From an uncultured Nitrososphaerota archaeon (GTDB lineage Archaea > Thermoproteota > Nitrososphaeria > Nitrososphaerales > CADDZS01): a stretch of DNA of 64,000 nt. How positions within the stretch are numbered: the stretch's first letter is position 1; each line of letters begins with the position of its first letter. The stretch is taken from assembly GCA_963799845.1 (NCBI GenBank), contig CAWCYI010000004.1, positions 1,984,001-2,048,000 of the forward strand, read 5' to 3'. A program made the position numbers and the translations under genes. Below, in pieces: positions 1 to 64,000 of the stretch. Under the pieces are notes generated by a model that was not told the DNA's origin, did no database searches, and saw nothing but the letters and a program-made list of their open reading frames with translations.

Positions 1-1
1 C

Positions 2-94
2 CATCCGCAGTTTCCAAACGCTCTGATGCCTCTCGCCTTTGCGATCCTCGGGATTGGAATAATTTTCATCGGCATGTACTTGGTGTTAGACTGA
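2..94 (+). CDS. 3' end of a membrane protein (partial, window edge)
   Basis: Frame 2 reads HPQFPNALMPLAFAILGIGIIFIGMYLVLD*, a C-terminal hydrophobic helix. Confidence 0.6.
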   Translation, partial: HPQFPNALMPLAFAILGIGIIFIGMYLVLD

Positions 95-97
95 AAC

Positions 98-122
98 TGT
101 CGTACAATCTGGCATTTTACTT
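98..122 (+). promoter_or_regulatory. TGTCGTACA upstream motif plus GCATTTTACTT
   Basis: Motif ends 34 bp before the ATG at 140; near-identical block at 45499-45521. Confidence 0.6.
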
Positions 123-139
123 ACGTGAAGCTCGGTTAA

Positions 140-3100
140 ATGAGACTTAGCAAGCAAAATAAGCACGAGCAAAATCGGCGCAGGCTGATCATCGGACTAC
201 TCGGCGCACTTTTCGCGCTGTCGATCCTTTCCTCGCTCAGTTCACTGGCCATTCAGAACGCTCTACCTTCGAGCGTTCAAAGCGTTCCTTCATCTGCACC
301 GAACCGAAATTTCCTTTCGGACATTACATCATCAGTGTCAAATTTTCTAAGTGGAGCTGGGAAATCTATTGGGCAATTTATCGTAGCCAATTTCCCTCAT
401 GCGAAGAATGTTTTCGCGAGTGGACCAACTTATGACTATTCAATGGATCAGGCGTGTGTAGCGTCGGGGTGTACTGGTTACACTGGTTCGAGTGCGTTTC
501 CGACGGTTACGGCAGGCGATACCATAATTGTAACTGCTGATAGTGTTTCGAGTGCAATCAGTTCTTGCACGATTTCAGATAGCAGTTCAAGATTAACCTG
601 GACGAGTCTAGGGATTTTACTATCAGCTCCGTACGGCGGGAACGGCGGCGGGGATTGGACGTGGGTGGGCGTTGCTACCTCGACTGGTTCAACAACTGTG
701 AACGTGGCGAATTGCGTCGGCGGCAGCATAATACAATACATCGGTGAGCAATTTACTGGATTAGGCGCATACTCCACTGACCATACGGCCGAGAACTCGG
801 GTTCACCCGTATCTGTTGGTTCGTTCACGCCGACGACAGGGCAGACGGTATATGCCTTTGGCACTTTTTACAATGTTAAAGGTGCGACAGTAGCATCAAC
901 GGGCGGCGCAGTTTATTCAAACATCATCAATGGCATATCTGGATATGCGTCAAATCCTTCATCTGGATCTTGTGCTGGAATCTGTCAAGAAGTTGGAGAC
1001 ATGTATGGTCAGACTACGAGTGCTACTACTGCTAGTATGAGTTGCACGGGTGCAACAGGCGGAGACGAATCTGGCGGCGTATGTAGTCTTGGGGCAGAGC
1101 TTGTTTTAGTCTTTAACGCACCCACAATCATTCAGCCAATCCAATGCACGATGCAATCAGGATCGCAGCATCAGGCGACAATAACAATCTCAGGCGGCTC
1201 GCCATCTCCGTCGCCCTCGACCGTTTTATGCGATGGATCATCTCACAACGTTGCTGTTCAGGGCAGCATCACTCTAACAGCAACCGAGCCTGCTGATGGG
1301 ACGTGTGGAACATCATGCCGAGATCGATTCAGCGTTTCAAGTGCAGCAAGTACCACGATAACTGTTACATCATCAACATCAACTTGGTCCATCACTAATT
1401 ATGAACAATTAAGCAACACGTACCAGGTTACTGCGGAAGCTCAGACGGATTTTGACGCGAGCATGTCTTGGACGGTTACTGGAACGTTTCTCGGAGTTGT
1501 GGGTACCACAATTTGTACGATCTCATCCACGGTTGCGACGACCGATTCTTGCGCGGGTTACGCCGATTCTGATGTGGCAGTTACGATCCCTCAAGCCGCT
1601 ACTAGCCCACCTACAAATACAAGATGGCAATCGAGCGCGGCGTGTTCATCGACCGTAACAACGGGCGGGAACAGCGAGAACTGCAATTCGTATAAGCAAC
1701 TGGATAACACTTACCAAGCTTCCACGAATGGTCAGGGTCCGCCAACTTGGGATTCTGGATTAAGCGCAGTAGTTACAGGATCTCTTTATGGATCCACGGG
1801 TCAGAGCATTTGCACTATCAATCCATCATCGGGAACGACTACTACTGCCTCGTGTACTGGTTATGATGACTACGGTGCTGCCGCTACCGAACCCTCTACG
1901 ATGAGTGGAGCTGGATCAAATATCCAATGGAAGATCTATGGAACTGCATCCTGGACTGATACAAGTCCAAGTACTCACACTGGCACGTACTACAAGCAGC
2001 TTCGAAACACGTACCAAGTAACCGCCGAGGCGCAATCAACTTTCGATACCTCGATGAGCTGGACAGTTACAGGAACAGTCGGGGGTACCGGATCTTCAAC
2101 AGTCTGCACAATTTCATCAACCGCCGCTGCAACCGATTCGTGTTCTGGATATGCTGACTACGATCTAGGCGTTACCATTCCGCAGGCCGCGAGCTCACCG
2201 CCCGCGAGTACTCGCTGGCAATCTTCTGCTGCGTGTACATTTACGCAGACCTCTGGGGGAAATACAAACAACTGCAACTCGTACAAACAACTGACCAATA
2301 CGTATCAGGCTTCCACGAATGGGCAGGGTCCGCCAACCTGGGATAGCGGCCTCTCGGCAACTGTAACGGGATCGCTCTATGGAAATACTGGTCAAACGAT
2401 CTGCACCATAAGCCCCAGCTCAGGAACCACCACGACCGCGACATGCTCGAGTTATGCCGATTACGATGCTGCGGTTTCCGAGCCTTCAACGATGAGTGGC
2501 GCGGGATTCAATATTCAATGGAAGATCTATGGAACGTCGAGCTGGACAGACACCACGGGCGGCAACACCCATACGGGTACTTACTACAAACAGCTCTCGA
2601 ACACCTATCAGGAAACTGCGATCACACCGACGACCTTCGATACCAGTATGTCTTGGGCGGTAACTGGAACGGTCGGCGGCGTTGGATCTTCCGGAGTTTG
2701 CACGATTTCTTCGACCGCTGCAACCACAGACAGTTGTACGGCTTATGCTGATTACGATCTAGGCGTTACGATTCCTCAAGCGGCTTCATCTCCGCCTTCC
2801 GGTACACGTTGGCAATCTAGTGCCGCGTGTACTTTCACTCAAACCACAGGTGGGAATACTAACAACTGCAATTCGTACAAGCAGCTCGATAACACTTATG
2901 ACGCTTCTACAAATGGACAGGGGCCGCCAACTTGGGATTCGGGCCTTAGTGCTGCGGTAACTGGCTCGCTCTATGGTGTTACAGGTCAGACGATCTGTAC
3001 GATTAGCCCGAGCTCGGGTACTACCACTACGGCTACATGCTCGGGTTATGCGGACTACGACGGGGCAATTTCAGAACCTTCGACTATGGCGGGAGCTGCC

Positions 3101-6100
3101 AGCGGGATCCAGTGGGCGATCACTGGTACTGCATCTTGGACAGATACAACAGCCAGTAACACTCACACGGGAACGTACTACAAACAACTAGACAATACCT
3201 ACGATGCCGTTCCAAATCGGAGAACTACCTTTGATGGAATTTATTCAATCAGCGTCTCTGGTACGATCTTCGGAGTTGGTTCTTCATCAGTCTGCACAAT
3301 CACTACGTCGAACGGCGGGGGAACCGCGTCTTGCAGCGGATATGCAGACTACGATCTTGCGGTTACAGTTGGAACGATCTCGGGTGCGCCTGCATCTACA
3401 CGCTGGACGATAGTTGGCACTTCAACCTTCACAGATACGACCGGATCAAACACCCATTCAGTTGAGTACTACAACGAGATCGATAACACTTACCAGGTTA
3501 CAGCCGAGGCGCAAACTGATTTCGACGCGAGCATGTCTTGGACTGTAACTGGAACGTTGGGCGGTTCATCGGGTTCGACTATCTGCACGATCACGTCCAC
3601 TGTCGCAGCAACAGATTCCTGTTCAGGGTACGCAGATTACGACCAGCCTGTAATTATTCCGCAGGCCGCGTCTAGTCCACCAGCCAATTCAAGATGGCAA
3701 TCGACGGCGGCGTGTACCTCGACCTTAACCACGCCTAGCAACACGGAGAACTGCAACTCGTACAAGCAGTGGACGAACACTTACGAAATGGCGGTCGCGG
3801 GTTCCGTGAGTGGCTTCACTGTTGGCAGCGGCAGTGGAGAATCAATGGTAGTACTCGGCTACCTCTATGGATCCTCTGGACAAACGATCTGCACGGCAAC
3901 GGCTTCAAGTGGTGCGAGCGCGACCTGCTCTGGATATTCTGACAACGCCGAAGCTGCTACACTGCCCCAATTTCTGACAGGCGAGGCAGCAAGTACTCAA
4001 TGGCAGGACAGCAACGGCGGATCGCAATCATCGGGATCGATAACCTCTGGGGCGAACACTATCACGGCTGAGTACTATCTTCAACTCTCGAACACCTATC
4101 AAGCCTCGACAAATGGACAGGGGCCGCCAGATTGGGATTCCGGCCTTAGTGCTACCGCGACAGGAACCTTACTCGGGGTAGCGAGTCAAACCATCTGCAC
4201 GATCTCTCCGAGCTCAGGAACGACGACGACCGCTGGATGCACAGGATACGCGGATTATGATCAGCCAGTTTCCGAGCCAGCTACGATGAGTGGAGCTGGA
4301 TCCAATATCCAATGGAAGCTCTATGGAACGTCGAGTTGGACTGACACCACAGCGGGAAATACTCACACAGGCACATATTACAAGCAGCTTCAAAATACGT
4401 ACCAAGTTTCTTCTCACGCCCAAACCGATTTTGATAATGGCCTCTCGTGGTCTATAACTGGTACGATCGGCGGGGTCGGGAGCTCATCGGTCTGCTCGAT
4501 CTCATCGACCGTTGCCGCAACTGATTCTTGCTCGGGCTATGCTGATTACGATCTCGGGGTAACTATCCCTCAAGGGGCCTCGGGAGCTGCCGCGAATACA
4601 CGTTGGCAATCAACAGCAGCCTGCACTTTCACCCAGACAACAGGTGGGAATACGAACAACTGCAATTCGTACAAGCAACTCACCAATGCTTATGCCGCAA
4701 ATCCCGTTGCCCCAACTACATTTTCAGCGAGTATCACCTTCGCGGTTACAGGATCGCTCTATGGAGTAACTGGACAAGCGATCTGCACCGTATCGGTTCC
4801 AGGCTCTCCGTCCTCGGGTAGCTACAACTGCGCGGGATATGCTGACTATGACGCTGCGGGTTCAATCGCGTCGGCGGCCTCGGGTTCCCCTACAAATCAG
4901 AGATGGGAAGTTTCTGGAACGGATTCGTGGACCGACACCACTGGCGCAAACACGCACACCGCGAATTACTATCTGCAAGACTCGACCACGGTTTCTTACT
5001 CAATCATTGGTGGCGCGGGAGCTTCCTCTGCCCCAACTCTGACGTACACATATCTCGGTACAGCTGGCACTACCTATTCGATGACTGTAACGCCAACAGT
5101 AGTTTGGCAGGACAATGGAAAGACATGGACCGCGACGAATCCTCTGCCTGGATCGGGAGCTAGCGAAAGATGGGATGCCCCCACCGGCTATTCAGGCTCG
5201 TCCACTGCTGGCGAAACTATTGACCCGACGTACTACAATCAATTTGATGTTACAGTTACGATCACTTCGATTGATGGTTCCATTCCTGGGCCGAGCGATC
5301 CCACTTTCAGTTACTCGCAATTCGGCAGCCCAGCTACCCTGACAGTAGCGACCTCGCAGACAACTTGGGCAGATGATTCTCAGGCATGGAGTATCACAAA
5401 TCCAATTTCAATTTCCAGCACGGAAAGATTCGATTCGCCATCGACGACCAGCGGCACGATCAGCGCGGCCTCGACCTTCCCCATCACGTACTACCATCAG
5501 TACAAGCAGGGATTTGAGTACAGCGTCGTCGGTATCAGTACCGGATCATCTCCGCCAACTTTCAAATTCTTCTACGAGGGAACGGTGAACAGCACCACGC
5601 TTTCAACGTCGCCAGCTCAACTCTGGCTCGACGCAAACCCCGCAGTTTGGAATTCCACGAATCCGCTGACGGGTTCAAATTCAACCGTGAGTTGGATGAC
5701 GGGAACGCCGACTGGCTCTACGTCAAGCGGTGGAGGAACAACGAACATTGTCTACGATCTAGCCTATGCGGTCATCACACTGTTCAATCCCGACTCGCTG
5801 ACCATCCAGTTCACAAACTCGACAGGTAGCTACACTAGTACGACTTCGCCCCTGAACATCTCGCCTGGCTCTACTTTCACGGTCGTTGGATCCAATTTCA
5901 ACGGCCTCTTTGAAATATCCACTAACGGCTCAACGATCTATCAGGTACCAGCAGGCTTCGGAAATGGAATCCAAGTCTTAAGCTCGGTCAGACTAAATCT
6001 TTTCAATTTCACGGCGGGAGGCACAAATCCATTCTTGAACATGACTGGAACGAGCGCAACGGTGATCGTACTAGATCCAGTTCCAGCAACAGGACTTTCG

Positions 6101-6775
6101 TACGTCTCGACCACGGTAGCGGGATCCTCTTACTCGCCGACTTTCTCACAGAGCAAAACGGTCATTCAGGTTACAACGACAGGAACACAAAATATTCTGA
6201 TGAATTTTGTCGTCGCGGGCCCAGAGACACAAACGCAATGCGTCGGTCCAAGCTGCGGCGGCGGAAGCACTACCGTAACTGCAACGGGAGAGGCTGGCGG
6301 CACAAGTACACTCATCCAGAATGGACAGGTGAGTGTAGAAGCTGGAAGCCCATCGAACCGAACGATCTCGCTGGTTTTGGACAACACCCAATCATCCGCG
6401 ATTACGGAACTGACCCAGCTCAGTTTCTCTAGCATGAGCAATGTTCAGGTGGTCTACAATCCGAGCGAGCTACCGATCAATGTTGGCAGTGGCGATACGG
6501 GTAGTGTTCCAGTCCAAGTACAATACAGCAGCCTAACTCCTGGTTCTTACGTCATCAACGGAACGGCGACCTTCACCCAGTACAGCAGCCAGACCAATTC
6601 GTACGTAACTCTGCACAGCGGATTCACGATCACGCTGTTCGTTCAGGCCCTAACTGGAAAGAGTGATGGATTCAATTTCGCGGCATTTCTAACAGCCTAT
6701 TGGTGGGTTTTCATCAGCGCGGCAATCCTCGCGGTAATTGGTATTGGTTTATTCATTAGAAAGACTGGACGTTAG
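140..6775 (+). CDS. Giant repeat-rich cell/virion surface protein (adhesin- or fibre-like), 2211 aa
   Basis: N-terminal basic+hydrophobic signal/TM; about 12 Cys-containing ~100-aa repeats (types YQVTAEAQTDFD... and YQASTNGQGPPTWD...); C-terminal TM plus RKTGR tail. Confidence 0.9.
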   Translation: MRLSKQNKHEQNRRRLIIGLLGALFALSILSSLSSLAIQNALPSSVQSVPSSAPNRNFLSDITSSVSNFLSGAGKSIGQFIVANFPHAKNVFASGPTYDYSMDQACVASGCTGYTGSSAFPTVTAGDTIIVTADSVSSAISSCTISDSSSRLTWTSLGILLSAPYGGNGGGDWTWVGVATSTGSTTVNVANCVGGSIIQYIGEQFTGLGAYSTDHTAENSGSPVSVGSFTPTTGQTVYAFGTFYNVKGATVASTGGAVYSNIINGISGYASNPSSGSCAGICQEVGDMYGQTTSATTASMSCTGATGGDESGGVCSLGAELVLVFNAPTIIQPIQCTMQSGSQHQATITISGGSPSPSPSTVLCDGSSHNVAVQGSITLTATEPADGTCGTSCRDRFSVSSAASTTITVTSSTSTWSITNYEQLSNTYQVTAEAQTDFDASMSWTVTGTFLGVVGTTICTISSTVATTDSCAGYADSDVAVTIPQAATSPPTNTRWQSSAACSSTVTTGGNSENCNSYKQLDNTYQASTNGQGPPTWDSGLSAVVTGSLYGSTGQSICTINPSSGTTTTASCTGYDDYGAAATEPSTMSGAGSNIQWKIYGTASWTDTSPSTHTGTYYKQLRNTYQVTAEAQSTFDTSMSWTVTGTVGGTGSSTVCTISSTAAATDSCSGYADYDLGVTIPQAASSPPASTRWQSSAACTFTQTSGGNTNNCNSYKQLTNTYQASTNGQGPPTWDSGLSATVTGSLYGNTGQTICTISPSSGTTTTATCSSYADYDAAVSEPSTMSGAGFNIQWKIYGTSSWTDTTGGNTHTGTYYKQLSNTYQETAITPTTFDTSMSWAVTGTVGGVGSSGVCTISSTAATTDSCTAYADYDLGVTIPQAASSPPSGTRWQSSAACTFTQTTGGNTNNCNSYKQLDNTYDASTNGQGPPTWDSGLSAAVTGSLYGVTGQTICTISPSSGTTTTATCSGYADYDGAISEPSTMAGAASGIQWAITGTASWTDTTASNTHTGTYYKQLDNTYDAVPNRRTTFDGIYSISVSGTIFGVGSSSVCTITTSNGGGTASCSGYADYDLAVTVGTISGAPASTRWTIVGTSTFTDTTGSNTHSVEYYNEIDNTYQVTAEAQTDFDASMSWTVTGTLGGSSGSTICTITSTVAATDSCSGYADYDQPVIIPQAASSPPANSRWQSTAACTSTLTTPSNTENCNSYKQWTNTYEMAVAGSVSGFTVGSGSGESMVVLGYLYGSSGQTICTATASSGASATCSGYSDNAEAATLPQFLTGEAASTQWQDSNGGSQSSGSITSGANTITAEYYLQLSNTYQASTNGQGPPDWDSGLSATATGTLLGVASQTICTISPSSGTTTTAGCTGYADYDQPVSEPATMSGAGSNIQWKLYGTSSWTDTTAGNTHTGTYYKQLQNTYQVSSHAQTDFDNGLSWSITGTIGGVGSSSVCSISSTVAATDSCSGYADYDLGVTIPQGASGAAANTRWQSTAACTFTQTTGGNTNNCNSYKQLTNAYAANPVAPTTFSASITFAVTGSLYGVTGQAICTVSVPGSPSSGSYNCAGYADYDAAGSIASAASGSPTNQRWEVSGTDSWTDTTGANTHTANYYLQDSTTVSYSIIGGAGASSAPTLTYTYLGTAGTTYSMTVTPTVVWQDNGKTWTATNPLPGSGASERWDAPTGYSGSSTAGETIDPTYYNQFDVTVTITSIDGSIPGPSDPTFSYSQFGSPATLTVATSQTTWADDSQAWSITNPISISSTERFDSPSTTSGTISAASTFPITYYHQYKQGFEYSVVGISTGSSPPTFKFFYEGTVNSTTLSTSPAQLWLDANPAVWNSTNPLTGSNSTVSWMTGTPTGSTSSGGGTTNIVYDLAYAVITLFNPDSLTIQFTNSTGSYTSTTSPLNISPGSTFTVVGSNFNGLFEISTNGSTIYQVPAGFGNGIQVLSSVRLNLFNFTAGGTNPFLNMTGTSATVIVLDPVPATGLSYVSTTVAGSSYSPTFSQSKTVIQVTTTGTQNILMNFVVAGPETQTQCVGPSCGGGSTTVTATGEAGGTSTLIQNGQVSVEAGSPSNRTISLVLDNTQSSAITELTQLSFSSMSNVQVVYNPSELPINVGSGDTGSVPVQVQYSSLTPGSYVINGTATFTQYSSQTNSYVTLHSGFTITLFVQALTGKSDGFNFAAFLTAYWWVFISAAILAVIGIGLFIRKTGR

Positions 6776-7006
6776 ATCACAGAATCTTCGGGATATTTTT
6801 GCCTCGTCTGCGAAATTCGATTTAGGCCGTCTGCTTTCCCCGAGGCGCAAAAGAAAGGACTGATGCCCTGCTATTTCACTGTCCATAGATGCTCTCACAG
6901 TGCCGTCCTGGATAACTTCCGCTCTGAGAAAAATACTGTCTGGGCCGCGTCTCGTTGCCCTGCCTGCAAGTTTGACTGGCTCTCCAATAAACATCTCACC
7001 AGGAGC

Positions 7007-8254: not shown

Positions 8255-8362
8255 AATATGAAAATCCTTGGCCGAAAGTCAATCCTGTTCGACTGGTCTC
8301 AGGTTTCCAATCCGACCCATGATCAAAGCAGCATTCGGTTATTATGAGACCCGAGCTTCTAA

Positions 8363-9391: not shown

Positions 9392-9635
9392 AAATAGTAT
9401 TCACCCAGCTGCTGTTCAGTAACGGTGCGTTTGGACATTGTCGGTCAGACCACAGATAACTACTATTAAGTTTGTGAAATTTCAGGAATCTCAGAGATGA
9501 ACATTTCTTCCGTCCGCCGAGCCTAATAGGAGGGATAAAATTATCCCTTGATAGAATGAGATCAGAAACGAACCAGCTTCGGTTCCGAACGGTATTCGGA
9601 CGCGTATTTACCAATAATGGAAGATTTACAAATGA

Positions 9636-12012: not shown

Positions 12013-12101
12013 ATCAATATGCGCGACTTGCTCCCGAAAACTCTGCTGGGAACTATTATGATTTTGGTTCCTTTGAAAGGACTTTTCTTGGTTTCGTATC
12101 C

Positions 12102-47865: not shown

Positions 47866-47869
47866 AAAT

Positions 47870-48877: not shown

Positions 48878-48881
48878 TAGA

Positions 48882-50336: not shown

Positions 50337-50362
50337 CAAATAAAGCGAGCGTCGGAAAGTCG

Positions 50363-51726: not shown

Positions 51727-51738
51727 TCTTTTCCACCA

Positions 51739-52398: not shown

Positions 52399-52553
52399 AG
52401 GAGATTTCAGAAATTGCGCTGTGAAAGAATCGATATAAGGTGTATTCTTATGTAAAAATCCTCTAGTTTGACGTTCACCCCTGATGTATTTTGCACCAAA
52501 ATTTAGGCTCGATATGAGCTGAATACCCCGACTACTACTACTACCAGAACAAG

Positions 52554-53630: not shown

Positions 53631-53657
53631 GAAAGAAAAACCACTTTTTCTGTTGTC

Positions 53658-53990
53658 ATGCCTTCGACACATATCCTCAAGATGATCGGCTTTGGGTTCC
53701 TCTCGGCTGCAATCGGGGTGATCCTGCTGATCAACGCATACATCATTCACCCGCCTTACATCTATCTGCCGATAGTACTGGCTGCTGTAATGATTCTGAT
53801 CGCAGCGGTAACAATGCTATGCACCCAGAAGCTCTCGGAGAAGCTGGCGGATTTCTTCTTGGTGATCCTCGGTCTATTACTTTTGTTAGTGCCGATCTTT
53901 AACGCGCCAGTACTATCTACCGTGGTAGTTGCGGCAATCATCCTGATTGTGGGAGTTATCGAAATCGTCATCGGTCTTGTTATGGCGTAG
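53658..53990 (+). CDS. Small 4-TM protein
   Basis: Almost entirely hydrophobic. Confidence 0.7.
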   Translation: MPSTHILKMIGFGFLSAAIGVILLINAYIIHPPYIYLPIVLAAVMILIAAVTMLCTQKLSEKLADFFLVILGLLLLLVPIFNAPVLSTVVVAAIILIVGVIEIVIGLVMA

Positions 53991-56051: not shown

Positions 56052-56054
56052 AAA

Positions 56055-57095
56055 TTGAAGAAAAGAATTCTGATCGCCATCGAGGTTTTGCTTGTCGTCA
56101 TTACGGCTAGCTTTTCCACTCCGTCAGCATCAGCCAGCGGGGTCGGTTTTCTCGCCTCGTTTGACACAAACACCAACAATCCTCATTTCGCAGTTCTGGG
56201 AATTTCACTAGCGAATCTCTCGGACACTGGACAGTTGGCCACCGCTTACACCAACTATTGTTTGGGATGCAGCACCGTCTCGATTCCCTCGATCAGCGTA
56301 CTAGTGGGGCAAACATATCTTGTCCTCGTTTCGGTGAACACCAGCTCTTCGAGTTGTGGCGGATTGTCTGACACCTTAAGGCAAACCTTCACGCCAACGG
56401 CTGCGGCACACAGCTCCACCGGACATGCAACAGTCTGCGCCTATAATGAAGGAAGCATTACGTCGAGTGGCATGGACGCTATCAGTGTTACGGATCTTTC
56501 GCTGAATTACAACATAGAAGTCTATGTCTACGTCCTAACAGGTTACTCAAATGGAACCCTCGGCTACAACTCTGCTGATGATGCGACCTGTTCATGCAGC
56601 CCCACGATCCCCCAGCTCTACTTCAATTATGTCTCGGTCAATCCTGGATGGTTTGGCGCGGGGGCCTATGACAGCACCGCGCTGACTACTGTACAGCTGA
56701 CCTATGAGGCTGGCACTACTGGGATCGGCGAAGGCGTTAGTGGCGGTCAATATGCGGGCTTTGGTGGAGAATATTTCATCAATACTGGACCCATCACCAG
56801 CACGGTTACGACGACCACGCCTATCACAACTACTACAACTTCGGCAGTTACGACAACTGCGCCCGGCCCGTGCTGCGTCCAAGTTCAGGGCGGCGGCGTT
56901 CAAACTACAACGGCCATCGGTCCTACAACCGTGAGCGCGAGTACGCTAACTCAGGTCAGATCGTCCTCGGTCAAATCCATCCTGACTATCTTCGAGCTAT
57001 CGAGCTCGGAATGGTTCGTCGCGATCATCGCAGTAGCGATTGCTGTCCTCGCAAGCGTCGTCGTAGTGATCCGCGTGAGGACTCGCCATTTCTAG
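56055..57095 (+). CDS. Cys-rich surface protein with C-terminal TM
   Basis: Signal peptide, Thr-rich linker, GPCCVQ, TM + RTRHF. Confidence 0.8.
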   Translation: MKKRILIAIEVLLVVITASFSTPSASASGVGFLASFDTNTNNPHFAVLGISLANLSDTGQLATAYTNYCLGCSTVSIPSISVLVGQTYLVLVSVNTSSSSCGGLSDTLRQTFTPTAAAHSSTGHATVCAYNEGSITSSGMDAISVTDLSLNYNIEVYVYVLTGYSNGTLGYNSADDATCSCSPTIPQLYFNYVSVNPGWFGAGAYDSTALTTVQLTYEAGTTGIGEGVSGGQYAGFGGEYFINTGPITSTVTTTTPITTTTTSAVTTTAPGPCCVQVQGGGVQTTTAIGPTTVSASTLTQVRSSSVKSILTIFELSSSEWFVAIIAVAIAVLASVVVVIRVRTRHF

Positions 57096-57487
57096 CCGAT
57101 TTTGAAAAACTGTCTCGCGCTAGGACTCAACTCGGCCACTAAGACGGCTACGCCAAGTACCAAAGCGGGGATCAGAAAAATTTCATTACCCAGAGCTACG
57201 AATAGTAATGTTGCCGAGAACAGGATGATGAGAACCGATGATAAAAGGGTGAAGGCCCAAGCAATCCGAATTCCAGCAAATAACCAAATGAAAAGGATCA
57301 ATCCGACCAGACCTAATGCGATATAGAAAAACCCAAACAGGCCGTTGAGGGCTCGGTTTTGAAGCTGCATGATATTAGCTAATCCAAACCAAGCAGCTAT
57401 GCTACCCATAACGAGAAGATACATGCTTTCAACTCCCTGCAACACTCCTAGCGCGATTACACCATTCGTCCTTTTTCCGTGCGCCAT
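57092..57487 (-). CDS. Small 4-TM membrane protein
   Basis: KRTNGV...GIRIAW...PSARQFF pattern. Confidence 0.7.
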   Translation of the reverse strand: MAHGKRTNGVIALGVLQGVESMYLLVMGSIAAWFGLANIMQLQNRALNGLFGFFYIALGLVGLILFIWLFAGIRIAWAFTLLSSVLIILFSATLLFVALGNEIFLIPALVLGVAVLVAELSPSARQFFKIG

Positions 57488-57569
57488 GTAACTAAAAGGA
57501 AATCTTGTAGTTAGTACAACGTACCGAGAAATTTCCTTTTACATTTACGAAGGAAAAGCGCAGCTAAAA

Positions 57570-58358
57570 ATGCCGAAGTTCTTCCTAGTCGGTAGTGCCG
57601 GTCAAAGCCGCCACCACTTTGAACAGCGTTCTCAGCGAAAGCAAAGGAAAGCTACCGCTAGGAGATCCTCGGTAGTCAAAAAGAAATCCCGAGCCGTCGA
57701 GCGTCCAGTTCCCAAGAAGATCGAAAAGCGGGAAATGGAAGCTAAGGCAGTAGCTCAAGTTGTTTCGCAAAGACCACCCCTTGGGGCGCACACGGTTGAT
57801 ATTACTCAGGACGTTGCCAGGGCGATTGAGAATTCTAAATTTGGTCCGCTGATCAAAGCGCGAGAAGCTGCGGCAAAGTCAGCCCCAACAAATGAGCAGA
57901 TCATTCGATTTCCAAACAGACCCAGGCCGAGGCCGCCTAGTCGCCCGTACAATTCGATCCAAACTCAGAAGGAAGCTGCTGCGGTCAGAGAGCAGAAGAA
58001 AGAGACTAGAGAGCTTATCAAAGAATTTCCAGACCTGAATTCAAAGGAAAAAGATCTCATCAAGAAAGCTGGACTTGTCGGCGTTGGAAAACCGAAAGTC
58101 TCGATCAGCAAACCCGACTCTACAATAGTGGTGCAGCAAAAGGTCGTTCAGACTCCGACGACGAGCAGTGGGCATGATACGGGTTGGGATCTCGTGGGGA
58201 AAGTTCCTTCATCCAGCGGCCACGGAGATTACGAGATTAAGATCAATCGGAACACGGGAAGATTAGGCTGTTCTTGTCCGCGATACAAATTCAGCGGTAT
58301 GCAGAGCTGCAAACACACGGAAGCGTACCAAGCGAACCCAGAAGCCTATAAGGTCTAA
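57570..58358 (+). CDS. Basic protein with C-terminal SWIM Zn finger
   Basis: VPSSSG..YEI...CSCP...CKH. Confidence 0.8.
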   Translation: MPKFFLVGSAGQSRHHFEQRSQRKQRKATARRSSVVKKKSRAVERPVPKKIEKREMEAKAVAQVVSQRPPLGAHTVDITQDVARAIENSKFGPLIKAREAAAKSAPTNEQIIRFPNRPRPRPPSRPYNSIQTQKEAAAVREQKKETRELIKEFPDLNSKEKDLIKKAGLVGVGKPKVSISKPDSTIVVQQKVVQTPTTSSGHDTGWDLVGKVPSSSGHGDYEIKINRNTGRLGCSCPRYKFSGMQSCKHTEAYQANPEAYKV

Positions 58359-58363
58359 CGCCC

Positions 58364-59497
58364 GTGCCGAAGTACTTCCTCGCGAAGCACTATCCACGCA
58401 GAGCTCCGCCAGCAAAAAAGAATCCTCGCCCTAAATTTGAGTACAAGCACGAGGAAGCCAAATACCGCGTAGATCTAAAACGCGATCTGCGAGTCCGAGG
58501 AATTCCGTTTAACAAAGAAGCCAAGACGGAGATTCTGGAAAAGGCACACGAGAGAGTTGGCGAAACCTATCCGCGTGTTACTGTGATGGGTGGGATGTTC
58601 TCAAATCTGATTACATCTCCACGCGCAATTTTGCTGGACAGAAACCTGGCGGGAAAAATCAGTTCTGTTTGTGGACATGAACGGTGGACCGAAAGATATG
58701 GTGCGAGTGCTGTATCTCACGGGCCGAGACGCTGGAAAGATCGAGAAGGTCAGGCTAGGAAATCTCAACGCTGATATGTACGACAGGACCCCGATGACGT
58801 TGAAAGAGGCGAAGGACGAGGCTGCGAAAAATCTCAAGCGATCCAAACTGGAAGCTTTCGCGAATTCACACGCAGTTACTCGTAACGAAGTGGTTGCCAT
58901 TGCAGCTGAAGATGAGGAAAGATCTTCACGCCTCTCCAGATGGGCTGCAAGTGATGAGCCACGGTCTAATGAAAGACAGCGACCTTCAAATCACAGTCAA
59001 GATGCCCGAGGGAAAACGGATCTCCCAGAATCAAGTGAAAGAGGCGATCCGCAACGCTGGATACAAAGGCGAGATGGAAACTTTCCTCTTGGGCCGCGTG
59101 ATTGAGGTCAGGTTCATAGTACCGGGTCAGGATAAGGCGCGTGAAGAACTGGAAAAGATTGAGGCAGAGGAAGAACGGAAATCTCGAAATGATCTGGCGC
59201 GTCGAAGTCGGCAGGACAGAAAAAGCCGACCTGCTTCGAGAGGATTTGAAGAAACGGAATCTCCCAGGAGCTTTCATCTTGGGATACGACGATGCGGTTC
59301 GCAGCACGGATCCTAACAACGTCAATTACGACAAATCATTCGACGCGAGCAAGCCAGAGGAAATGTCACAGCGAATCATAAACAGTTTTGGTGATCCGAA
59401 ATTGCAGACCAAGCAGTACGCTGATGGAGTCAGAGCCTTCGTGAAAGCGAAGAAAGAAGGAAAGGACGTTTCAAAACCGTTGGACTGGTTACTATGA
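58364..59497 (+). CDS. Basic KHYP-leader protein, fragmented by several frameshifts (ORFs 58364/58671/58894/59141)
   Basis: Staggered overlapping ORFs; leader MPKYFLAKHYPRR. Confidence 0.55.
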
Positions 59498-59577
59498 AAA
59501 AAATTAGAAGATCTGTGACAATCACTGACAAAAAATCAAATTCCATCCTGAAGCTTTGTAAAAGCACCAGCCGAGTT

Positions 59578-61401
59578 TTAGGTGGAGGGGAATGGAGAAT
59601 AGTATACCTCAGTGAGAGAGCTCAAGCCCGGTGAGAAGTCTAGTCCTCCGACGCAGAAGATCTCAGCTTTGGCAGTGAAACATGATTGGTCTGAGACAGC
59701 TGAAGGATAGTCGGATCCAGCACTCCAATTGCCTAAACCTGACGAACTCACAAGGGAATAGTAGGTCTGATTCAACGAGTAGCCACTCGCATTCTCCCCT
59801 CCGACGCACTCTATTATTCCCGTGTTGTAGGCACACGCCGCGCTTGCAACCGCCCATGGGTACGCGGGACCCTGCGACCACGGCCCGATTTGCCCATTCG
59901 AGAATGGTGCGTAATACACGGCGTTAGTTACGCCATTCGGTCCATAGCCTCCGACACAAATGATCCAGCCTCCGCCGCTCGTGCATGGCATGCTGTAGTA
60001 AATGGAGACCGGATAGTTATAGGGAGAGAGTCGCCATTGTCCTAGACCGTTGCTCGTCATAGTCGCGTAATACACCGAGTTATCGTTTCCAGATATGCAG
60101 TAAACATAGTCTGATATTGACGCGCAGCTTCCAACAAAGTTCATTGGATAGCTGGTTGTCTCTTTCCAAACTCCGACTCCTGAGGATGAAATGGGGGCAT
60201 AATAGGTCGCATTGGTGTCACTGGGTGCGGCGTCGTCTCCACCAATGCAGTACACAAAGCCCCCGTAGGTGACGCACTGCAGATCCGTGTCGTTCAAAGG
60301 GTACGGAGTGGTGCTCTGCCACTCGCCTAAGCCACTAGAAGTTACCTCCGCGTAATAAGTCGCGTTTGATCCAGATTCATTGCCAATTCCGGCTATACAG
60401 TATACATAACCAGAGCTCTGCACACAGGACCCGTCGGCGAACTCTTGGGGATAGGTTGTCGTCGCGTTCCACAAAATGCCGTTGCTAACGACAGGATTCG
60501 GACCGGGGTAAGTGATTTCTGGCAAATACAGGAAAACGGTGAAATTGTTAGTCAGTGACCATTTCTGAGTAAACATTGTTCCTGAAACATTCTTCGAATC
60601 GATCGCGAAGCTCAAGCTGATACTGAAATTAGTCTGGGGACCGGTATAATTCTGCTGCATCACTTCGCCGATTTTGCCTTCTAGAAACTTTCCACCGCCC
60701 AAAGACCAATTGACATCTGTTGGTGGAGACCCACCATTAGGGACGTTCAGGCTCACCACATCAAAATCGAATGTACTAGAGCCAACCTGAGTAATGTTGA
60801 ACGATACAGTATCGAGCGGCATTTCGTTGTAGGGATCAGTAGCAGGATATACCGCATAGCAGGTCATCGTATTCTGGTTTGTAAAAATTGGGTAGGACTC
60901 TCCTCCACCACTCATGTCGCCACAATCCAGGCCGATCCCGGTCTGATTACCTGCCAGAAAATCACTGGTGTATTGAGAAATCCCAGCTGAGGGGCCACTC
61001 AACTGTCCCGAACTAAAGACCAGACTAGTGAAAACACCTCCGAAATGGCAGGGAGGTGGTGGCATGGTCGCGTTACCCTGCGAGCACGGCGTAAAAGTCG
61101 AGGTAGTCATCGGTGTCGAAGTAAAGTTTGTAATCACCCTAGTCGTGTTTGTCGAGCTATTCTGAATCGAAGAGTAATTTGCAATGTGTGAACCGCTCGA
61201 ATTGGAATATTCGCTGAGAGTTGTAGATTCCTGTGAAGAGGTGGTTGTAGCTGCCGAGATTGCAGTCGTTGTTGAAGAAGGTTGATCCAATACTACCGAA
61301 GATTGAGTAGAAGAGGTTACTTCAACAGCCGCAATGACTAATGCAGCAACAACAATCAAAGCACCGATAGCAAGGAGGGATGATCTCCCTGGCCGAGGCA
61401 A
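59578..61401 (-). CDS. N-anchored surface protein with C-terminal Kelch-like beta-propeller
   Basis: Six repeats of W..TT.YP....C....YVYCIGG...YYA. Confidence 0.85.
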   Translation of the reverse strand: MPRPGRSSLLAIGALIVVAALVIAAVEVTSSTQSSVVLDQPSSTTTAISAATTTSSQESTTLSEYSNSSGSHIANYSSIQNSSTNTTRVITNFTSTPMTTSTFTPCSQGNATMPPPPCHFGGVFTSLVFSSGQLSGPSAGISQYTSDFLAGNQTGIGLDCGDMSGGGESYPIFTNQNTMTCYAVYPATDPYNEMPLDTVSFNITQVGSSTFDFDVVSLNVPNGGSPPTDVNWSLGGGKFLEGKIGEVMQQNYTGPQTNFSISLSFAIDSKNVSGTMFTQKWSLTNNFTVFLYLPEITYPGPNPVVSNGILWNATTTYPQEFADGSCVQSSGYVYCIAGIGNESGSNATYYAEVTSSGLGEWQSTTPYPLNDTDLQCVTYGGFVYCIGGDDAAPSDTNATYYAPISSSGVGVWKETTSYPMNFVGSCASISDYVYCISGNDNSVYYATMTSNGLGQWRLSPYNYPVSIYYSMPCTSGGGWIICVGGYGPNGVTNAVYYAPFSNGQIGPWSQGPAYPWAVASAACAYNTGIIECVGGENASGYSLNQTYYSLVSSSGLGNWSAGSDYPSAVSDQSCFTAKAEIFCVGGLDFSPGLSSLTEVYYSPFPST

Positions 61402-61541: not shown

Positions 61542-61985
61542 ATGCTAAAGACGAGCCCGTTTCTTCTGTTTGACGGAAACTGCGCTGAGGCAATGACTTT
61601 CTACCACGAGTGCTTTGGAGGAGAGTTAAGACTGACAAAGCTTGCCGATTCACCTATGAAGGATATGCTACCTCCCGAGAAACACAACCGAATCATCAAT
61701 GCATATCTGAAAAATGGCATCATTGAGATCTCGGCCACCGACTGGATGGCGGCCCCGCAGTACGAACCAACCCTGGGAGAGATGTACGCCGTATTTGTCA
61801 GGGGCAATTATGACGAGGTAAAGCCGGTATTTGACAAGCTTGCAGTTGGGGCAGAGAAGGATAGGTTCCAAGAACTGCACCAGATGCCGTTTGGAATGTA
61901 CGGACAGATGTATGATAAATTCCACAGGCATTGGATATTTGTGGCGGATGAAAAGAATAACCCGGCTGATGCTACCCAAAAGTGA
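61542..61985 (+). CDS. VOC / PhnB-like (3-demethylubiquinone-9 3-methyltransferase family) protein
   Basis: PFLLFDGNCAEAMTFY...FG.YGQ.YDKF..W. Confidence 0.9.
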   Translation: MLKTSPFLLFDGNCAEAMTFYHECFGGELRLTKLADSPMKDMLPPEKHNRIINAYLKNGIIEISATDWMAAPQYEPTLGEMYAVFVRGNYDEVKPVFDKLAVGAEKDRFQELHQMPFGMYGQMYDKFHRHWIFVADEKNNPADATQK

Positions 61986-62302
61986 AGGAAAGAAACTTGT
62001 GCAGCCGTAAACAGCTTCTATCTTGATCCTGTTTGGGGCGGCGAAGACACGGCTCCTCTGTTCAATACTGTAACATTTGGATAGTGAGCAGATCTAAATT
62101 CTAAGATGCCGCGGTCGCAGAGGTTCCTGAATCAAGTCGTCTACTGGCCCCTCGAAAATCAGTCGAGAACAGACGGCAGAAGATCAAGAAACGCGGGTTA
62201 AGAAACGCCTGGATTTGAAGCACTGACAAAACCCGATCCCGAGGAAGAAAAGAAAGAGCAGGCGCGACGATTGAGAAACTTTCTAAATCCGCTGTACTTC
62301 AA

Positions 62303-62809
62303 CTAGCAGAATCCAAAGTAGTCTGAGGATTCAGAATTTTCTCGTAATTTACATCGCTCATCAAGAATAGTTGCCCCTGTTCGGCCATGTCCACGATCAG
62401 CTCGAGCTCCCTTCGGCAACAAGTACTCATCAATATCCTCGGGATTGATCTTCTCGTCAGGATTGTTGTCGTCCTCTGTCAGATACCATTCAACACCGTC
62501 GCGAGTAGCCAGCCACAAAACTTTCGCGTCAGGTCCGAATCGTTTTTCGATCTCAACAAAAATATCTGCGAGTTTGGAATTCTTCCGCATCCCCCGGTTC
62601 TCCGCAATCTCGCCCCTCTCGTCGTTGTGCAGCTCTTTGATTTCATGGGTGATAACTTCTTCCGAGTTTCTGTATCCCTCGCCGTACGCTGTCTCTGTGC
62701 GGTATCCCTTCATCGCAGAGAGAATTTCGCGAGCTTCCTTCGTGCGTTCAGGAATTCGGATCTTGTGTGCAGCTCGCTTCGGTCCGCGCTGCGGATAATG
62801 CTTACTCAA
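62303..62809 (-). CDS. KHYP-leader hypothetical protein (frameshift near 62403)
   Basis: MSKHYPQR; correction gives ...PKGAELIVDMAEQGQLFL. Confidence 0.65.
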   Translation of the reverse strand: MSKHYPQRGPKRAAHKIRIPERTKEAREILSAMKGYRTETAYGEGYRNSEEVITHEIKELHNDERGEIAENRGMRKNSKLADIFVEIEKRFGPDAKVLWLATRDGVEWYLTEDDNNPDEKINPEDIDEYLLPKGARADRGHGRTGATILDERCKLRENSESSDYFGFC

Positions 62810-62982
62810 AGAGAATCTTCGAGATCGTCGCCGCTTTCCAGCCTGTCGCTCGTCGAGAATTTAGCTTCCAGTTCCTCGGGCGGTTCCCGATCCTCGCTGG
62901 GCTTCCTCTTGTGCGATTTGCCGAAATGCGGTCGTTTAGATTTGCCACTAGCCGTTCTGTTTGGATAGTGGCGGCTCGGCAT
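62806..62982 (-). CDS. Small RHYP-leader protein (58 aa)
   Basis: MPSRHYPNRTASGKSKRPHFGKSHKRKPSEDREPP...; stop overlaps the next TTG; below the ORF-track cutoff. Confidence 0.7.
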   Translation of the reverse strand: MPSRHYPNRTASGKSKRPHFGKSHKRKPSEDREPPEELEAKFSTSDRLESGDDLEDSL

Positions 62983-62984
62983 GT

Positions 62985-63290
62985 CTATCGCCCAAGCGAT
63001 CTGACGTAACTTTCGTCCACTTTTGCAGTGGCTAGAATATCTCGTCCTTTGTTTCTGTGCCAGACGACCAAGTTGTTCAATGCGTGGATAACTGCACCTG
63101 AGCCGTGTCTTTCGACGGCCATTCGCAGGGCAGCTTCCCTTTCGCCTCTGGACAGATCGACATGGTATCCCTCATCTGTCAGGATCCCTGGGTGGACCCG
63201 AGGAATTCTAATCTTCGGCTTTCTCGTACCACGGGCACGGCCTCTCGACCGCGATTTAACGGTACGTTGCGGGTAATGTTTCTGAGACAA
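62985..63290 (-). CDS. KHYP-leader + DUF5771-like viral domain
   Basis: GILTDEGY...REAALRMAVERHG...VIHALNNLVVW.RN...D.SYV. Confidence 0.6.
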   Translation of the reverse strand: MSQKHYPQRTVKSRSRGRARGTRKPKIRIPRVHPGILTDEGYHVDLSRGEREAALRMAVERHGSGAVIHALNNLVVWHRNKGRDILATAKVDESYVRSLGR

Positions 63291-63324
63291 TTCCGTCCAA
63301 TTCTAAAAACACTTTTTCTAGTGC

Positions 63325-63894
63325 ATGGCCAAGAATCCTCGGCATCATTTCTACCTCGCGAAAGTTGGGAAGAAAACTCGATCTCCCAAGCCCAAACCGA
63401 GAGCGAAAAAGAAACCCAGAGCAGTAGAGCCATTTGTATCGGGCGTGAAGGAACTGCGGGAAGAATTCCCGCAGGCGACGATCATCACTGCTAACGGGAT
63501 TTCGACCCCGCCAGAACACGGGATCGAACATTATCAGAAAAGACCTGAACCCGATCTGACGCTGAAAGACCTCGGCCAATATTACGGATCGCAGGAATGG
63601 CAACGGGACCGTCTGACTGGCGTACTTCTAACTGATGGAGTCCGCTACATCATGGAGAACGGGTACGGCTGGTTTGTCTCCGATGCACTTCCAGTATTGA
63701 AAGAAAACGAGGCGAAAGGCGAGGCGTTCCAAGTCGTCGAATTGAAGTTGGGCCCAGGCAAAACAGCTGATCTGACAATCGGTGATGGAAATAATCACCA
63801 GCTCTACAAGAAACACATCAACTACACGGACGCGAAGGCGAAGCCCAAACTCTACTTTACTGATAATGTATTGATGCTCGCTGGCGAGTATTAG
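63325..63894 (+). CDS. Basic leader + DUF6876-like domain
   Basis: LGQYYGSQEW...LTDGVRY...FQVVEL...DGN...YTD...VLMLAGEY. Confidence 0.75.
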   Translation: MAKNPRHHFYLAKVGKKTRSPKPKPRAKKKPRAVEPFVSGVKELREEFPQATIITANGISTPPEHGIEHYQKRPEPDLTLKDLGQYYGSQEWQRDRLTGVLLTDGVRYIMENGYGWFVSDALPVLKENEAKGEAFQVVELKLGPGKTADLTIGDGNNHQLYKKHINYTDAKAKPKLYFTDNVLMLAGEY

Positions 63895-63910
63895 GGCAAC
63901 GGTCTAGCCT

Positions 63911-64000
63911 TTGGCGCGTAAGCACTATCCTTCGCGCCGTCCACGCGCCAGAAGATCAAGAAAGAATCCACTCTACACGGAATCAATCAATCGATTCCGT
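63911..64000 (+). CDS. KHYP-leader protein (partial, window edge)
   Basis: TTG GCG CGT AAG CAC TAT CCT = MARKHYPSRRPRARRSRK... Confidence 0.65.
   Translation, partial: MARKHYPSRRPRARRSRKNPLYTESINRFR

Follow-up and report, generated by a model that had tools for sequence, protein, structure and literature searches.

What kind of DNA brings two FtsK/HerA-type ATPases together with many membrane and surface proteins in an archaeal chromosome, and is it a single element? The question is raised by a 64,000-nucleotide stretch (hereafter the window) of an uncultured Nitrososphaerota archaeon (GenBank assembly GCA_963799845.1, contig CAWCYI010000004.1, positions 1,984,001 to 2,048,000), for which the original prediction had proposed one large unclassified element. 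We consider it highly probable that the region is integrated mobile DNA of some kind, lying in the chromosome, and we give roughly even chances to the window's region being a partly decayed, conjugation-like integrated element. On the best reading, this element spans w17.7k to about w69.8k and has joined, by fusion or nesting, with a smaller one of a second type that keeps an intact integrase at w-10.7k, a duplicated host block lying between them. Window coordinates carry a w (w1 = C4:1984001, C4 being the contig, and negative values lying left of the window), and this genome is designated G000.

The genome comprises 4.6 Mb on nine contigs (GC 47%, completeness 86.7%, contamination 4.9%). The region is chromosomal: C4 is a 2.1-Mb contig, and the genome contains an archaeal 16S, the partial small-subunit rRNA on contig C1 scoring best as archaeal (776 bits). 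Greedy calling gave 79 open reading frames (ORFs) of at least 50 amino acids (aa) in the window; these are crude gene calls, of which 72 were scanned against Pfam (the seven shortest omitted) and 58 against PHROGs and NCBIfam. Pfam cut-offs lay between 1e-4 and 0.01 for the ORFs submitted from w-40k to the contig end, and hydrophobic segments were scored with the Kyte-Doolittle scale (19-aa window, threshold 1.7). Counts over relatives rest on incomplete metagenome-assembled genomes (MAGs, 58-96% complete), and the tallies take in the unpublished G001.

Comparison with relatives argues for mobile DNA rather than a vertically inherited core. In 12 family relatives, DNA matches occur at w9.6-17.5k, where they belong to multi-copy host families, and almost none are found from w17.7k to w60k; the ATPase at w42199 is present in 1 of 40 relatives (G012). 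The proposed abundance of anchored or exported proteins is likewise borne out. At least one hydrophobic segment is carried by 40 of the 79 window ORFs and by 37 of the 61 between w17.7k and w61.4k, and the 2.00-2.05 Mb bin of C4 (37/61, or 61%) ranks first among 43 bins, the next reaching 50% and the whole genome 25% (1198/4860).

The left edge of the unmatched DNA can be placed closely:

17701..17704: junction, left edge of the DNA unmatched in relatives

Matches in the family relatives end near w17.56k, and loose contig ends from two studies fall at w17704 (run X1) and w17701 (run X7), the loose 30-mers past these breaks being absent from this genome. Another run X1 contig spans w16692-17807 without any difference. 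Run X4 covers w19.7-28.3k and leaves w9-19.6k uncovered, a gap not used as evidence. A 3' fragment of a gene like that at w17702-18073 lies at w-260..-92, opposite the full copy across the host-like block. An integrase split in the manner of SSV was considered at this junction and dropped, the gene at w17702-18073 being a membrane protein and not the N-terminal half of an integrase.

As had been predicted, two genes at the centre of the window encode P-loop ATPases of the FtsK/HerA fold:

w42199-45387 (minus): ATPase of 1062 aa from a rare family without a Pfam entry (profile search, model)
w38261-41545 (minus): HerA-like ATPase of 1094 aa (Pfam, model)
41766..42155 (plus): protein of 129 aa with 3-4 transmembrane (TM) segments, between the two ATPases (hydrophobic segments)
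36428..38264 (minus): five small soluble ORFans on the same strand as the HerA-like ATPase and downstream of it (no family found)

Both ATPases are interrupted in Walker A by inteins that the original prediction had overlooked. In the w42199 protein a mini-intein of 276 aa (w43309-44136) divides GDPG|SGKST, its Intein_splicing match (3.7e-7) falling below the cut-off; in the w38261 protein a 434-aa intein with a LAGLIDADG endonuclease (w40061-41362) divides GGGK|S, with matches to Intein_splicing (3e-22) and LAGLIDADG_3 (5e-20). The termini, with the w38261 intein first, read S...HN|S and C...HN|S, that is, Cys or Ser at position 1 and His-Asn followed by Ser. Intein-less alleles from metagenomes keep the host motif contiguous: P0001 (791 aa, about 87-91% identical to the w42199 protein) contains GDPGSGKST uninterrupted, and P0083-85 (659 aa, 90-94% identity) are relatives of the w38261 protein in which PF01935 is present. 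Judged by their sequences, both insertions thus qualify as inteins.

After splicing, the w42199 ATPase would measure about 786 aa and consist of an all-helical N-terminal domain and a HerA/VirB4-like ATPase domain. Its family is rare. A word-indexed search of 5.8 billion clusters returned 3 matches, and an exhaustive hidden Markov model (HMM) search of 1.84 billion representatives returned 80 members, 39 of them at E<=1e-30. At least 5 of the 80 measure 1116-1164 aa and are matched in 2-3 stretches several hundred residues apart, which we read as apparent inteins inserted in the P-loop. In an alignment of 38 sequences (36 full-length intein-less matches, P0001 and the G012 ORF, with fragments and intein-bearing rows omitted), K425, D597, E598 and R627 are invariant or nearly so, and no Pfam family is matched by more than 3 of the 38 members, those of VirB4 being matched by none. 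The AlphaFold model of the family (pLDDT 86.2, pTM 0.74) places the helical domain at residues 18-346 and the ATPase domain at 350-745. VIA-align Z scores for this model were 23.5 for HerA (292 aligned residues, root-mean-square deviation (rmsd) 3.3), 19.7 for VirB4 (4ag5, 246 residues, rmsd 3.2), 16.4 for TcpA, 15.7 for FtsK and TrwB, and 15.4 for the viral packaging NTPase B204. In the ESM Atlas the family retrieved only DUF87/TrwB/CedB-like clusters, which we treat as a lead and not as evidence.

The mature w38261 ATPase would measure about 660 aa, with an ATPase domain, a coiled coil and two C-terminal winged-helix domains; we refer to it as the HerA-winged-helix-turn-helix (HerA-wHTH) ATPase. 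It lacks a TM anchor, and Pfam gives only DUF87. The word index holds 29 relatives, 25 of which were aligned; the four omitted measure 914-979 aa, and one of them, P0095, carries intein domains. The family model (pLDDT 79.9) shows a beta-hairpin, the ATPase domain (43-300), the coiled coil (316-444) and the two winged-helix domains, and its Z scores were 28.0 for HerA, 22.2 for VirB4, 20.0 for TrwB, 17.2 for FtsK and 17.1 for B204. The HerA alignments of both ATPases cover 249-292 residues, so that the predicted structures place both proteins in the FtsK-HerA superfamily, closest to HerA.

The w42199 ATPase adjoins a core that is conserved beyond this genus:

45525..53750: core conserved in another genus, on a 12.4-kb contig of G012 (tblastn, phmmer), holding the entries below
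w46011-46835: anchored secreted protein
w47208-50294: membrane proteins
w50363-50689: small protein
w50686-51726 (minus): ParB (ParB_N in Pfam, TIGR00180)
w51739-52398 (minus): Zn-ribbon protein that directly precedes ParB
w52554-53156: secreted protein
w53157-53750: protein with 4-5 TM segments

The ATPase, w46011, w47870, w50363, ParB and w52554 are collinear with G012:C196 at 33-42% protein identity. When the contigs of GTDB representatives were scanned with the ATPase alignment, none but the G012 contig matched. A near-identical core is present in soil and peat runs of 5 studies, 3 of which runs hold at least half of the sampled words, and the habitats of the matching runs are soil, peat and wetland. 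The predicted ParB matched ParB_N (E 2e-6) and TIGR00180 (1.9e-13). The Zn-ribbon protein aligns with the host transcription factor B proteins (TFBs) over the ribbon only (28 columns, probability 44%); a full TFB homologue lies left of the window at w-2218..-779 (probability 99.6%, 273 columns), about 2.5 kb downstream of a ParB-methylase fusion. TFIIB-repeat matches in the genome number 20, taken to be about nine TFB paralogues. An ESM Atlas search with w47870-48877 was uninformative (best score 0.79).

Of 400 other genomes sampled across the class, 6 contain full-length proteins of the w42199 family (G047, G073, G109 twice, G131 twice, G119). An integrase of PF00589 lies 1.6-7.2 kb from the ATPase at 5 of the 8 loci outside this genome, the remaining 3 being contigs of 12.4, 3.9 and 3.0 kb. 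We scanned 103 of the 131 ORFs of at least 90 aa at these loci. They share X1, a family with 3-4 TM segments, and X2, a coiled-coil family, which stand directly before the ATPase in G109:C11, G109:C8, G131:C49 and G119; in G047 a methylase and other ORFs intervene, and in G073 the pair lies about 6 kb away on the other strand. Further components are a small protein (X3), a methylase, DUF6876, and a block comprising a DUF2341 surface protein, a CPBP protease and several Ser/Thr-rich proteins with signal plus anchor. The integrase-bearing elements (G109:C11:1-17200, G047, G073, G131:C49) were traced for at least 17-23 kb at the three longer loci, and in G109:C11 DUF6876 adjoins both the integrase and the ATPase. 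This genome has in common with them the ATPase, the anchored protein w46011-46835, DUF6876 and the integrase type. HMMs of 10 related-locus families (X1-X4, B0-B5) gave no significant match in this genome, the best being B0 against w52557-53156 (E 0.006), and the corresponding search with the family of the anchored protein w46011-46835 retrieved no gene here other than that one.

The w38261 family follows a separate distribution: full-length members occur in 2 of the 400 class genomes (G149, G188), neither of which has the w42199 family. In G149 the ATPase is separated by 3.6 kb from a homologue of the w-10726 integrase (E 6e-27) and is followed by genes for an MT-A70 methylase, a TFIIB-like protein, a TPR protein and MCM, and a 16-bp direct repeat bounds a putative element of about 14.9 kb on G149:C19 (L040:14819 to L041:9712). 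Because the two ATPase families occur apart, each with its own integrase type, we describe the island as a mosaic of at least two element families and a host block. Its first part is of the G149 type (left integrase, methylases, TFB-like gene, HerA-wHTH operon) and its second of the G012/G047 type (the w42-53k core, DUF6876, truncated right integrase); surface-protein clusters and the duplicated host block are the third and fourth. The claim of one large unclassified element therefore did not hold, also because comparable integrated elements of thaumarchaea have been described (PMC6563490, in the portions of the article drawn on here).

The original prediction saw no integrase in the window and advised looking for one outside it. 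Tyrosine recombinase genes or fragments that it had overlooked do flank the region:

w-10726..-9446: left tyrosine recombinase, intact, 426 aa, R...HxxR...Y visible, Pfam match only at E 0.15
w69456-69788: right integrase, a remnant of 111 codons (C-terminal half)
w131513-132151: third integrase, 213 codons, 79% identical to the right remnant, beside a broken IS110

Matches to relatives or paralogues end at w-10788, 60 nt before the left integrase. To its right lie ORFans, the ParB-methylase fusion, a second methylase, a 378-aa ORF and the genuine TFB homologue. On the other side, a conserved DUF998 gene overlaps the upstream end of the right integrase, and matches to relatives or paralogues resume there; host-like genes (DUF998, a 327-aa ORF) are interspersed right of the window. 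ORFan-rich DNA continues on both sides, rightward to the contig end at w154.6k, which agrees with the prediction that the element exceeds 64 kb, and the last 3 kb of C4 have no match elsewhere in the assembly. A 232-bp inverted repeat (97.4% identical) has copies 136 kb apart at w-9389..-9160 and w126974..127205, one 57 nt past the intact integrase and the other forming the 3' end of a 356-aa ORF.

Just upstream of the left integrase, a hairpin-containing sequence of 41-49 nt (w-10836..-10788) recurs at 92-100% identity on C7, C6, C4 and in a same-genus genome, and is perhaps a small repetitive element, or else a site favoured for integration. A 70-nt piece that is conserved between genomes, L003:6513-6590, was considered as a tRNA and rejected, with ARAGORN and Rfam empty and the piece sitting at the 3' end of an ORF. 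Left of the island, C4:1944001-1964000 is dense in transposable elements, with an rve transposase, IS66, and an IS110 split by the reverse transcriptase/maturase of a group II intron. A crude CRISPR scan found only an 84-bp coding tandem repeat.

A shared promoter motif had also been predicted, and the 9-mer TGTCGTACA fits this description. It occurs 6 times in the window (w98, 22056, 24190, 41724, 45499 and 58777, the last on the minus strand) against 0.35 expected, an enrichment of about 17-fold that none of 100 shuffles reached, and a doubled copy lies at w147594. Four copies begin 24-41 nt upstream of the ORF starts at w140, w22081, w41766 and w45525, the distance being 41 nt both for the giant surface protein at w140 and for the 3-4-TM protein at w41766. 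Its enrichment and placement make TGTCGTACA a possible promoter or operator of the element. Its position upstream of w140-6775 would therefore tie this giant protein of the host-like block to the regulation of the element.

The remaining features of the window complete its inventory:

17702..28559: surface-protein cluster (Pfam, paralogy, hydrophobic segments), with the four entries below, a 554-aa anchored protein and others
w17702-18073 and w18159-18752: paralogous pair
w20051-22025: two PKD proteins with N- and C-terminal anchors
w22081-23247: pilin-like protein (Pilin_N below threshold)
w23589-24503: CPBP/Rce1-like protease
28553..36220: low-GC run (40-45%) of small secreted or anchored ORFans (composition, hydrophobic segments, no Pfam match above cut-off)
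53999..61401: further surface proteins, namely a 620-aa ORF with a 62-aa anchor piece, then one of 346 aa; a 131-aa protein with two hydrophobic segments; three soluble ORFans; and a 607-aa Kelch-repeat surface protein (PF24681 below threshold, 30.9 bits against a cut-off of 50)
61542..64000: VOC-family protein, with the two entries below
w62985-63290 (minus): DUF5771 (Pfam)
w63325-63894 (plus): DUF6876 (Pfam)

Past w17.7k, Pfam recognises few families: PKD (twice), Flg_new_2, DUF5658, Rce1/CPBP, ParB_N, the inteins, DUF5771 and DUF6876. PHROGs and NCBIfam contribute only ParB and HerA-type matches. Among the predicted families, the CPBP protease (w23589-24503, E 2e-6), the DUF5658-like protein (w19573-19992, E 4e-7), DUF5771 (E 1e-7) and DUF6876 (E 5e-22) were recovered at the coordinates given. 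The candidates for SpoIIM-like and FUN14-like proteins (w19157-19576 and w26454-26945) had no Pfam match even at E<=5. A predicted phage-type methyltransferase remnant was not found either, PF01555 being absent from C4:1984001-2048000 and tblastn with six methyltransferase queries empty; just outside, at w-6008..-3373, the left flank carries two N6/N4 methylases. For the predicted pilin-type leader at w22081-23247 a Pilin_N match exists, ranking third among those in the genome, but it stays below the cut-off of 25.2 bits (18.9 bits, E 0.011, in six-frame translation; 14.7 bits for the called ORF). Small proteins at w96278-103578 are paralogous to ORFs C4:857863-858384 and C4:865203-865715, which have sub-threshold Pilin_N matches; because of this resemblance, the wider island may hold more pilin-like genes.

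Conserved 5' regions (40-180 bp) of the ORFans at w28553-36220 recur at w85.7-101.3k with 72-90% identity, where they stand upstream of other small secreted genes 50-65 kb away, and the 620-aa ORF has a paralogue at w104903-106030. The DUF6876 module runs rightward past the window through an LPD29 protein and an NmrA-like gene to the truncated integrase at w69456-69788.

Three adjacent ORF pairs resemble one split gene each: w9900-12105 (w9900/11695), w27122-28559 (w27122/28179) and w53999-56051 (w53999/55863). At w11708, 18160, 18757, 23560, 23598, 24768 and 28165, the run X1 contigs show single-base indels relative to the window. Since w11708 and w28165 lie among these positions, the first two pairs, and by analogy the third, are probably assembly frameshifts (homopolymer errors) and not pseudogenes.

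Host-like cargo, which the original prediction had described as interspersed in the element, is present in the left part of the window:

1..17700: host-like block inside mobile DNA (Pfam; paralogues elsewhere in the genome), with an MFS transporter, a nitronate monooxygenase, three TPR-AAA genes, a lumazine-binding protein, a pterin dehydratase and the two entries below
w140-6775 (plus): Ser/Thr-rich surface protein of 2211 aa, no Pfam family
w16709-17632 (minus): Ku-like gene

The giant protein is anchored at its N terminus and has a TM segment at the C-terminal end, and its gene contains internal repeats 300-1100 bp long that are 66-74% identical. A segmental duplication relates w12187-16362 to C4:505980-515033 at 80-88% DNA identity and spans a TPR-AAA gene, the lumazine-binding gene and the pterin dehydratase. 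Both this genome and its same-genus relatives hold TPR-AAA genes in many copies.

From this inventory we infer how a conjugation-like element of this kind might work. The spliced w42199 ATPase would assemble into a hexameric motor and, together with small multi-pass membrane proteins (w41766, w47870, w53157, w57092), might energise a membrane channel. The two winged-helix domains of the w38261 ATPase would recognise the element's DNA, and this ATPase would pump double-stranded DNA in the style of FtsK and actinomycete TraB. Cell contact may be made by the Ser/Thr-rich anchored proteins and the pilin-like protein. ParB and the TFB-like and Zn-ribbon proteins would serve partition and element-specific transcription, the latter possibly through TGTCGTACA, and the tyrosine recombinase would integrate the element.

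How well do other explanations account for the same locus? A conjugation-like element is favoured because the inventory echoes that of integrative and conjugative elements (ICEs) of thaumarchaea (PMC6563490, to the extent drawn on here) and because archaeal transfer systems are described as unrecognisable between lineages (PMC9905601, likewise in part). Several results count against it. Neither ATPase can be assigned to VirB4 or to VirD4/TraG, and neither matches the Pfam families of VirB4, TraG or TrwB; among the ORFs submitted from w-40k to the contig end, the Pfam families of VirB6, VirB3, TadC, FlaI/PilT and prepilin peptidase are not matched, and no virion protein, VirB6, VirD4 or relaxase was recognised. 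No replication gene was found for the window's element. Exact words shared between the ends, self-BLAST of the island and short-word BLAST of the 200 nt next to the integrases gave no att repeat beyond chance, and no tRNA target was found from 1.9 Mb of C4 to its end, with or without intron search (the intron-aware ARAGORN run called 32 of 35 tRNAs as intron-containing, some with very long introns that may be spurious). The right integrase is a remnant, so that the right part is probably no longer independently mobile, and the relatives from which absence is read are MAGs of 58-96% completeness, a kind of assembly that often lacks mobile DNA. Since only 1 of the 16 ORFs inside the G149 repeat (the TPR protein) has a hydrophobic segment, a w38261-type ATPase does not require a membrane apparatus, and since the two families never co-occur in the 400 class genomes, the two ATPases need not work together. 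Finally, Foldseek ranks the packaging NTPase B204 of STIV2 first for the w42199 model (E 4.2e-6), and the best BFVD match is the ATPase of Haloarcula hispanica virus PH1 (E 9e-7). These last matches would suit a provirus, or the remnant of one, from a membrane-containing archaeal virus (pleomorphic, spindle-shaped or internal-membrane icosahedral), in which the HerA-fold ATPase packages or extrudes the genome, the Ser/Thr-rich anchored proteins are spikes and the multi-pass proteins belong to the envelope. The HerA-wHTH ATPase accordingly matches phrog_2666, 'terminase large subunit' (1.7e-10, the sole PHROG match of that name in the window), and phrog_7035 (4.6e-11), the latter also being the only match of the w42199 C-extein (1.4e-5). 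The related elements, with an integrase, a methylase, one ATPase and a signal-plus-anchor block, are compatible with small enveloped proviruses, and most thaumarchaeal cryptic integrated elements (CIEs) might be new families of viruses or plasmids (PMC6563490, in part). We nevertheless judge a provirus quite unlikely. As the original prediction had seen for HK97 capsid, portal, relaxase and integrase, Pfam and PHROGs/NCBIfam recognise none of these in the window, and by these sequence methods no major capsid, portal, terminase or spike family, nor a jelly-roll capsid adjoining an ATPase, appears among the 58-72 ORFs. Family X1, considered as a double jelly-roll capsid, was dropped because it has 3-4 TM segments. 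Neither ATPase has a relative in IMG/VR, which was scanned with both C-exteins, no viral protein in BFVD spans the entire w42199 model (TMq at most 0.30), and the Z scores for HerA and VirB4 exceed those for B204 in both models (23.5 and 19.7 against 15.4; 28.0 and 22.2 against 17.1). The mature ATPases, at about 786 and 660 aa, are several times as long as the packaging-NTPase chains of about 200 aa matched in the PDB, and compared with known pleomorphic or spindle viruses, 52-80 kb is a large region.

It may also be that no functional element exists, and that the locus is a 'graveyard' and hypervariable surface-protein region made of element remnants, insertion sequence (IS) copies and duplicated host genes, with ATPases that are relics or used by the host. 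Two of the three integrase genes or fragments are truncated, IS110 is broken, a group II intron and IS66 and rve transposases lie nearby, a host block is duplicated, no att site turned up, the two ATPase families are accompanied by different genes in other genomes, host-like genes are interspersed right of the window, and the inverted repeat 136 kb apart hints at rearrangement. Against this stand the intact long ORFs of the core and the splicing termini kept by the inteins, on account of which the ATPases are probably still made, as well as the collinearity of w42-53k in another genus, the near-identical core in the runs of 5 studies and the enriched TGTCGTACA motif that joins genes across the region; we therefore regard this explanation as unlikely. 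A HerA-based anti-phage system on a defence island appears very improbable. An intein-less w38261 relative does match 11 PADLOC HerA models partially (best 3.1e-14, 50.5 bits) among 13 family matches, as well as HerA_antiphage of NCBIfam (8.9e-6, 24.5 bits against a cut-off of 800); Sir2-HerA and DUF4297-HerA complexes are among the best structural neighbours; and GmrSD, HNH and methylases occur in the wider island. However, the PADLOC matches cover the Walker B region only, the w42199 family has none, no Sir2, DUF4297, NurA or other known effector partner was found among 50 proteins scanned, and the neighbours are ParB, integrases and surface proteins. A partly decayed, conjugation-like element thus remains our preferred reading.

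A broader suggestion, which we put forward tentatively and think more doubtful than not, is that the Pfam-less ATPase family marks an undescribed class of archaeal integrative elements with a minimal DNA-moving apparatus: a motor ATPase, a 3-4-TM partner and CPBP-matured, Ser/Thr-rich anchored proteins, with no VirD4, VirB6 or relaxase. Such a class might embody a new conjugation mechanism or a new enveloped-virus lineage, and the window's element would be its largest, chimeric member, having captured a second, FtsK-like HerA-wHTH pump, with both motors colonised by P-loop inteins.

DNA exchange among mesophilic soil archaea is almost unknown, and the integrated elements described from them are mostly of unknown function; we know of no conjugation or virus system experimentally demonstrated for this group. 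A search of the literature from 2020 on for conjugative or mobile elements of Nitrososphaeria or peat returned nothing specific to this element type. The locus offers two rare ATPase families, both confidently modelled and both with natural alleles that lack the intein and could be expressed, a candidate DNA-recognition module in the two winged helices and a candidate regulatory motif. The related elements of other genomes, much smaller at about 15-23 kb, lend themselves better to experiments. The genome, at 4.6 Mb compared with 0.7-4.3 Mb for the class genomes, is large partly because of stacked mobile elements, IS copies (a 1.1-kb IS has at least 17 identical or near-identical copies) and segmental duplications. 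The ends of small contigs also overlap pairwise (C2/C3, C5/C9, C7/C8) over 2.4-3 kb at 96-99.6% identity, integrase-like matches are present on C2 and C3, and these contigs may be strain variants or extrachromosomal elements.

Among known systems, FtsK and the actinomycete TraB translocases of double-stranded DNA combine a RecA-like hexameric motor with C-terminal winged-helix domains. The w38261 ATPase differs from them in lacking a TM anchor and in its modelled fold, which resembles HerA (Z 28.0) more than FtsK (Z 17.2), and its predicted winged helices could read a DNA motif. Compared with B204 of STIV2 and the PH1 ATPase, the w42199 family has the same ATPase fold in its model, yet their chains measure 196-208 and 240 aa against about 786 aa with a helical N-terminal domain of 330 aa. 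Viral packaging NTPases are reported to adjoin a double jelly-roll capsid gene (PMC6563490, in part), whereas no capsid gene was recognised in the window.

Ced and Ted pair a VirB4/HerA-like ATPase with small 2-TM and 6-7-TM membrane proteins and use no relaxase (Beltran et al. 2023, PMC9905601, as far as that paper is drawn on here). Since these systems share no recognisable sequence similarity, according to the same portions of the paper, failure to detect transfer components is to be expected. Relative to Ced/Ted and the Sulfolobus conjugative plasmids (PMC9905601, in part), no CedA/TedA-like or VirB2-like protein was demonstrated in the window, and those systems are host-encoded importers or plasmid-borne and not integrase-linked islands.

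The closest likeness is to the thaumarchaeal ICEs (Krupovic et al. 2019, PMC6563490, again in part), for which that article describes a TFIIB-ParB pairing, an ATPase pair, pilins, a missing relaxase and a median of 64 kb. The region resembles them in being integrated, in measuring tens of kb, in its tyrosine integrases, its FtsK/HerA ATPase pair, its many membrane proteins and pilin-like protein, its ParB with a TFIIB-type protein adjacent or nearby, its lack of a relaxase and its non-syntenic, recombined modules. It differs in that its ATPases are not assignable to VirB4/TrbE or VirD4/TraG and both bear inteins, that the TFB-like part of the protein preceding ParB is reduced to a Zn ribbon, and that VirB6, VirB3, TadC, FlaI/PilT, prepilin peptidase and a replication module were not detected. 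VirB6-like proteins often escape detection by sequence. The article lists VirB6/VirB3/TadC, FlaI/PilT and prepilin peptidase among 'other conserved components' that are not universal (PMC6563490, same portions). With the CIEs of that study the region shares an integrase, mostly ORFans and an obscure mode of transfer. The CIE class as it is described there accommodates the 14.9-kb relative in G149 (integrase, HerA-wHTH ATPase, methylase, TFIIB-like gene, MCM), while the region in the window is far larger, rich in surface proteins and combines two element types.

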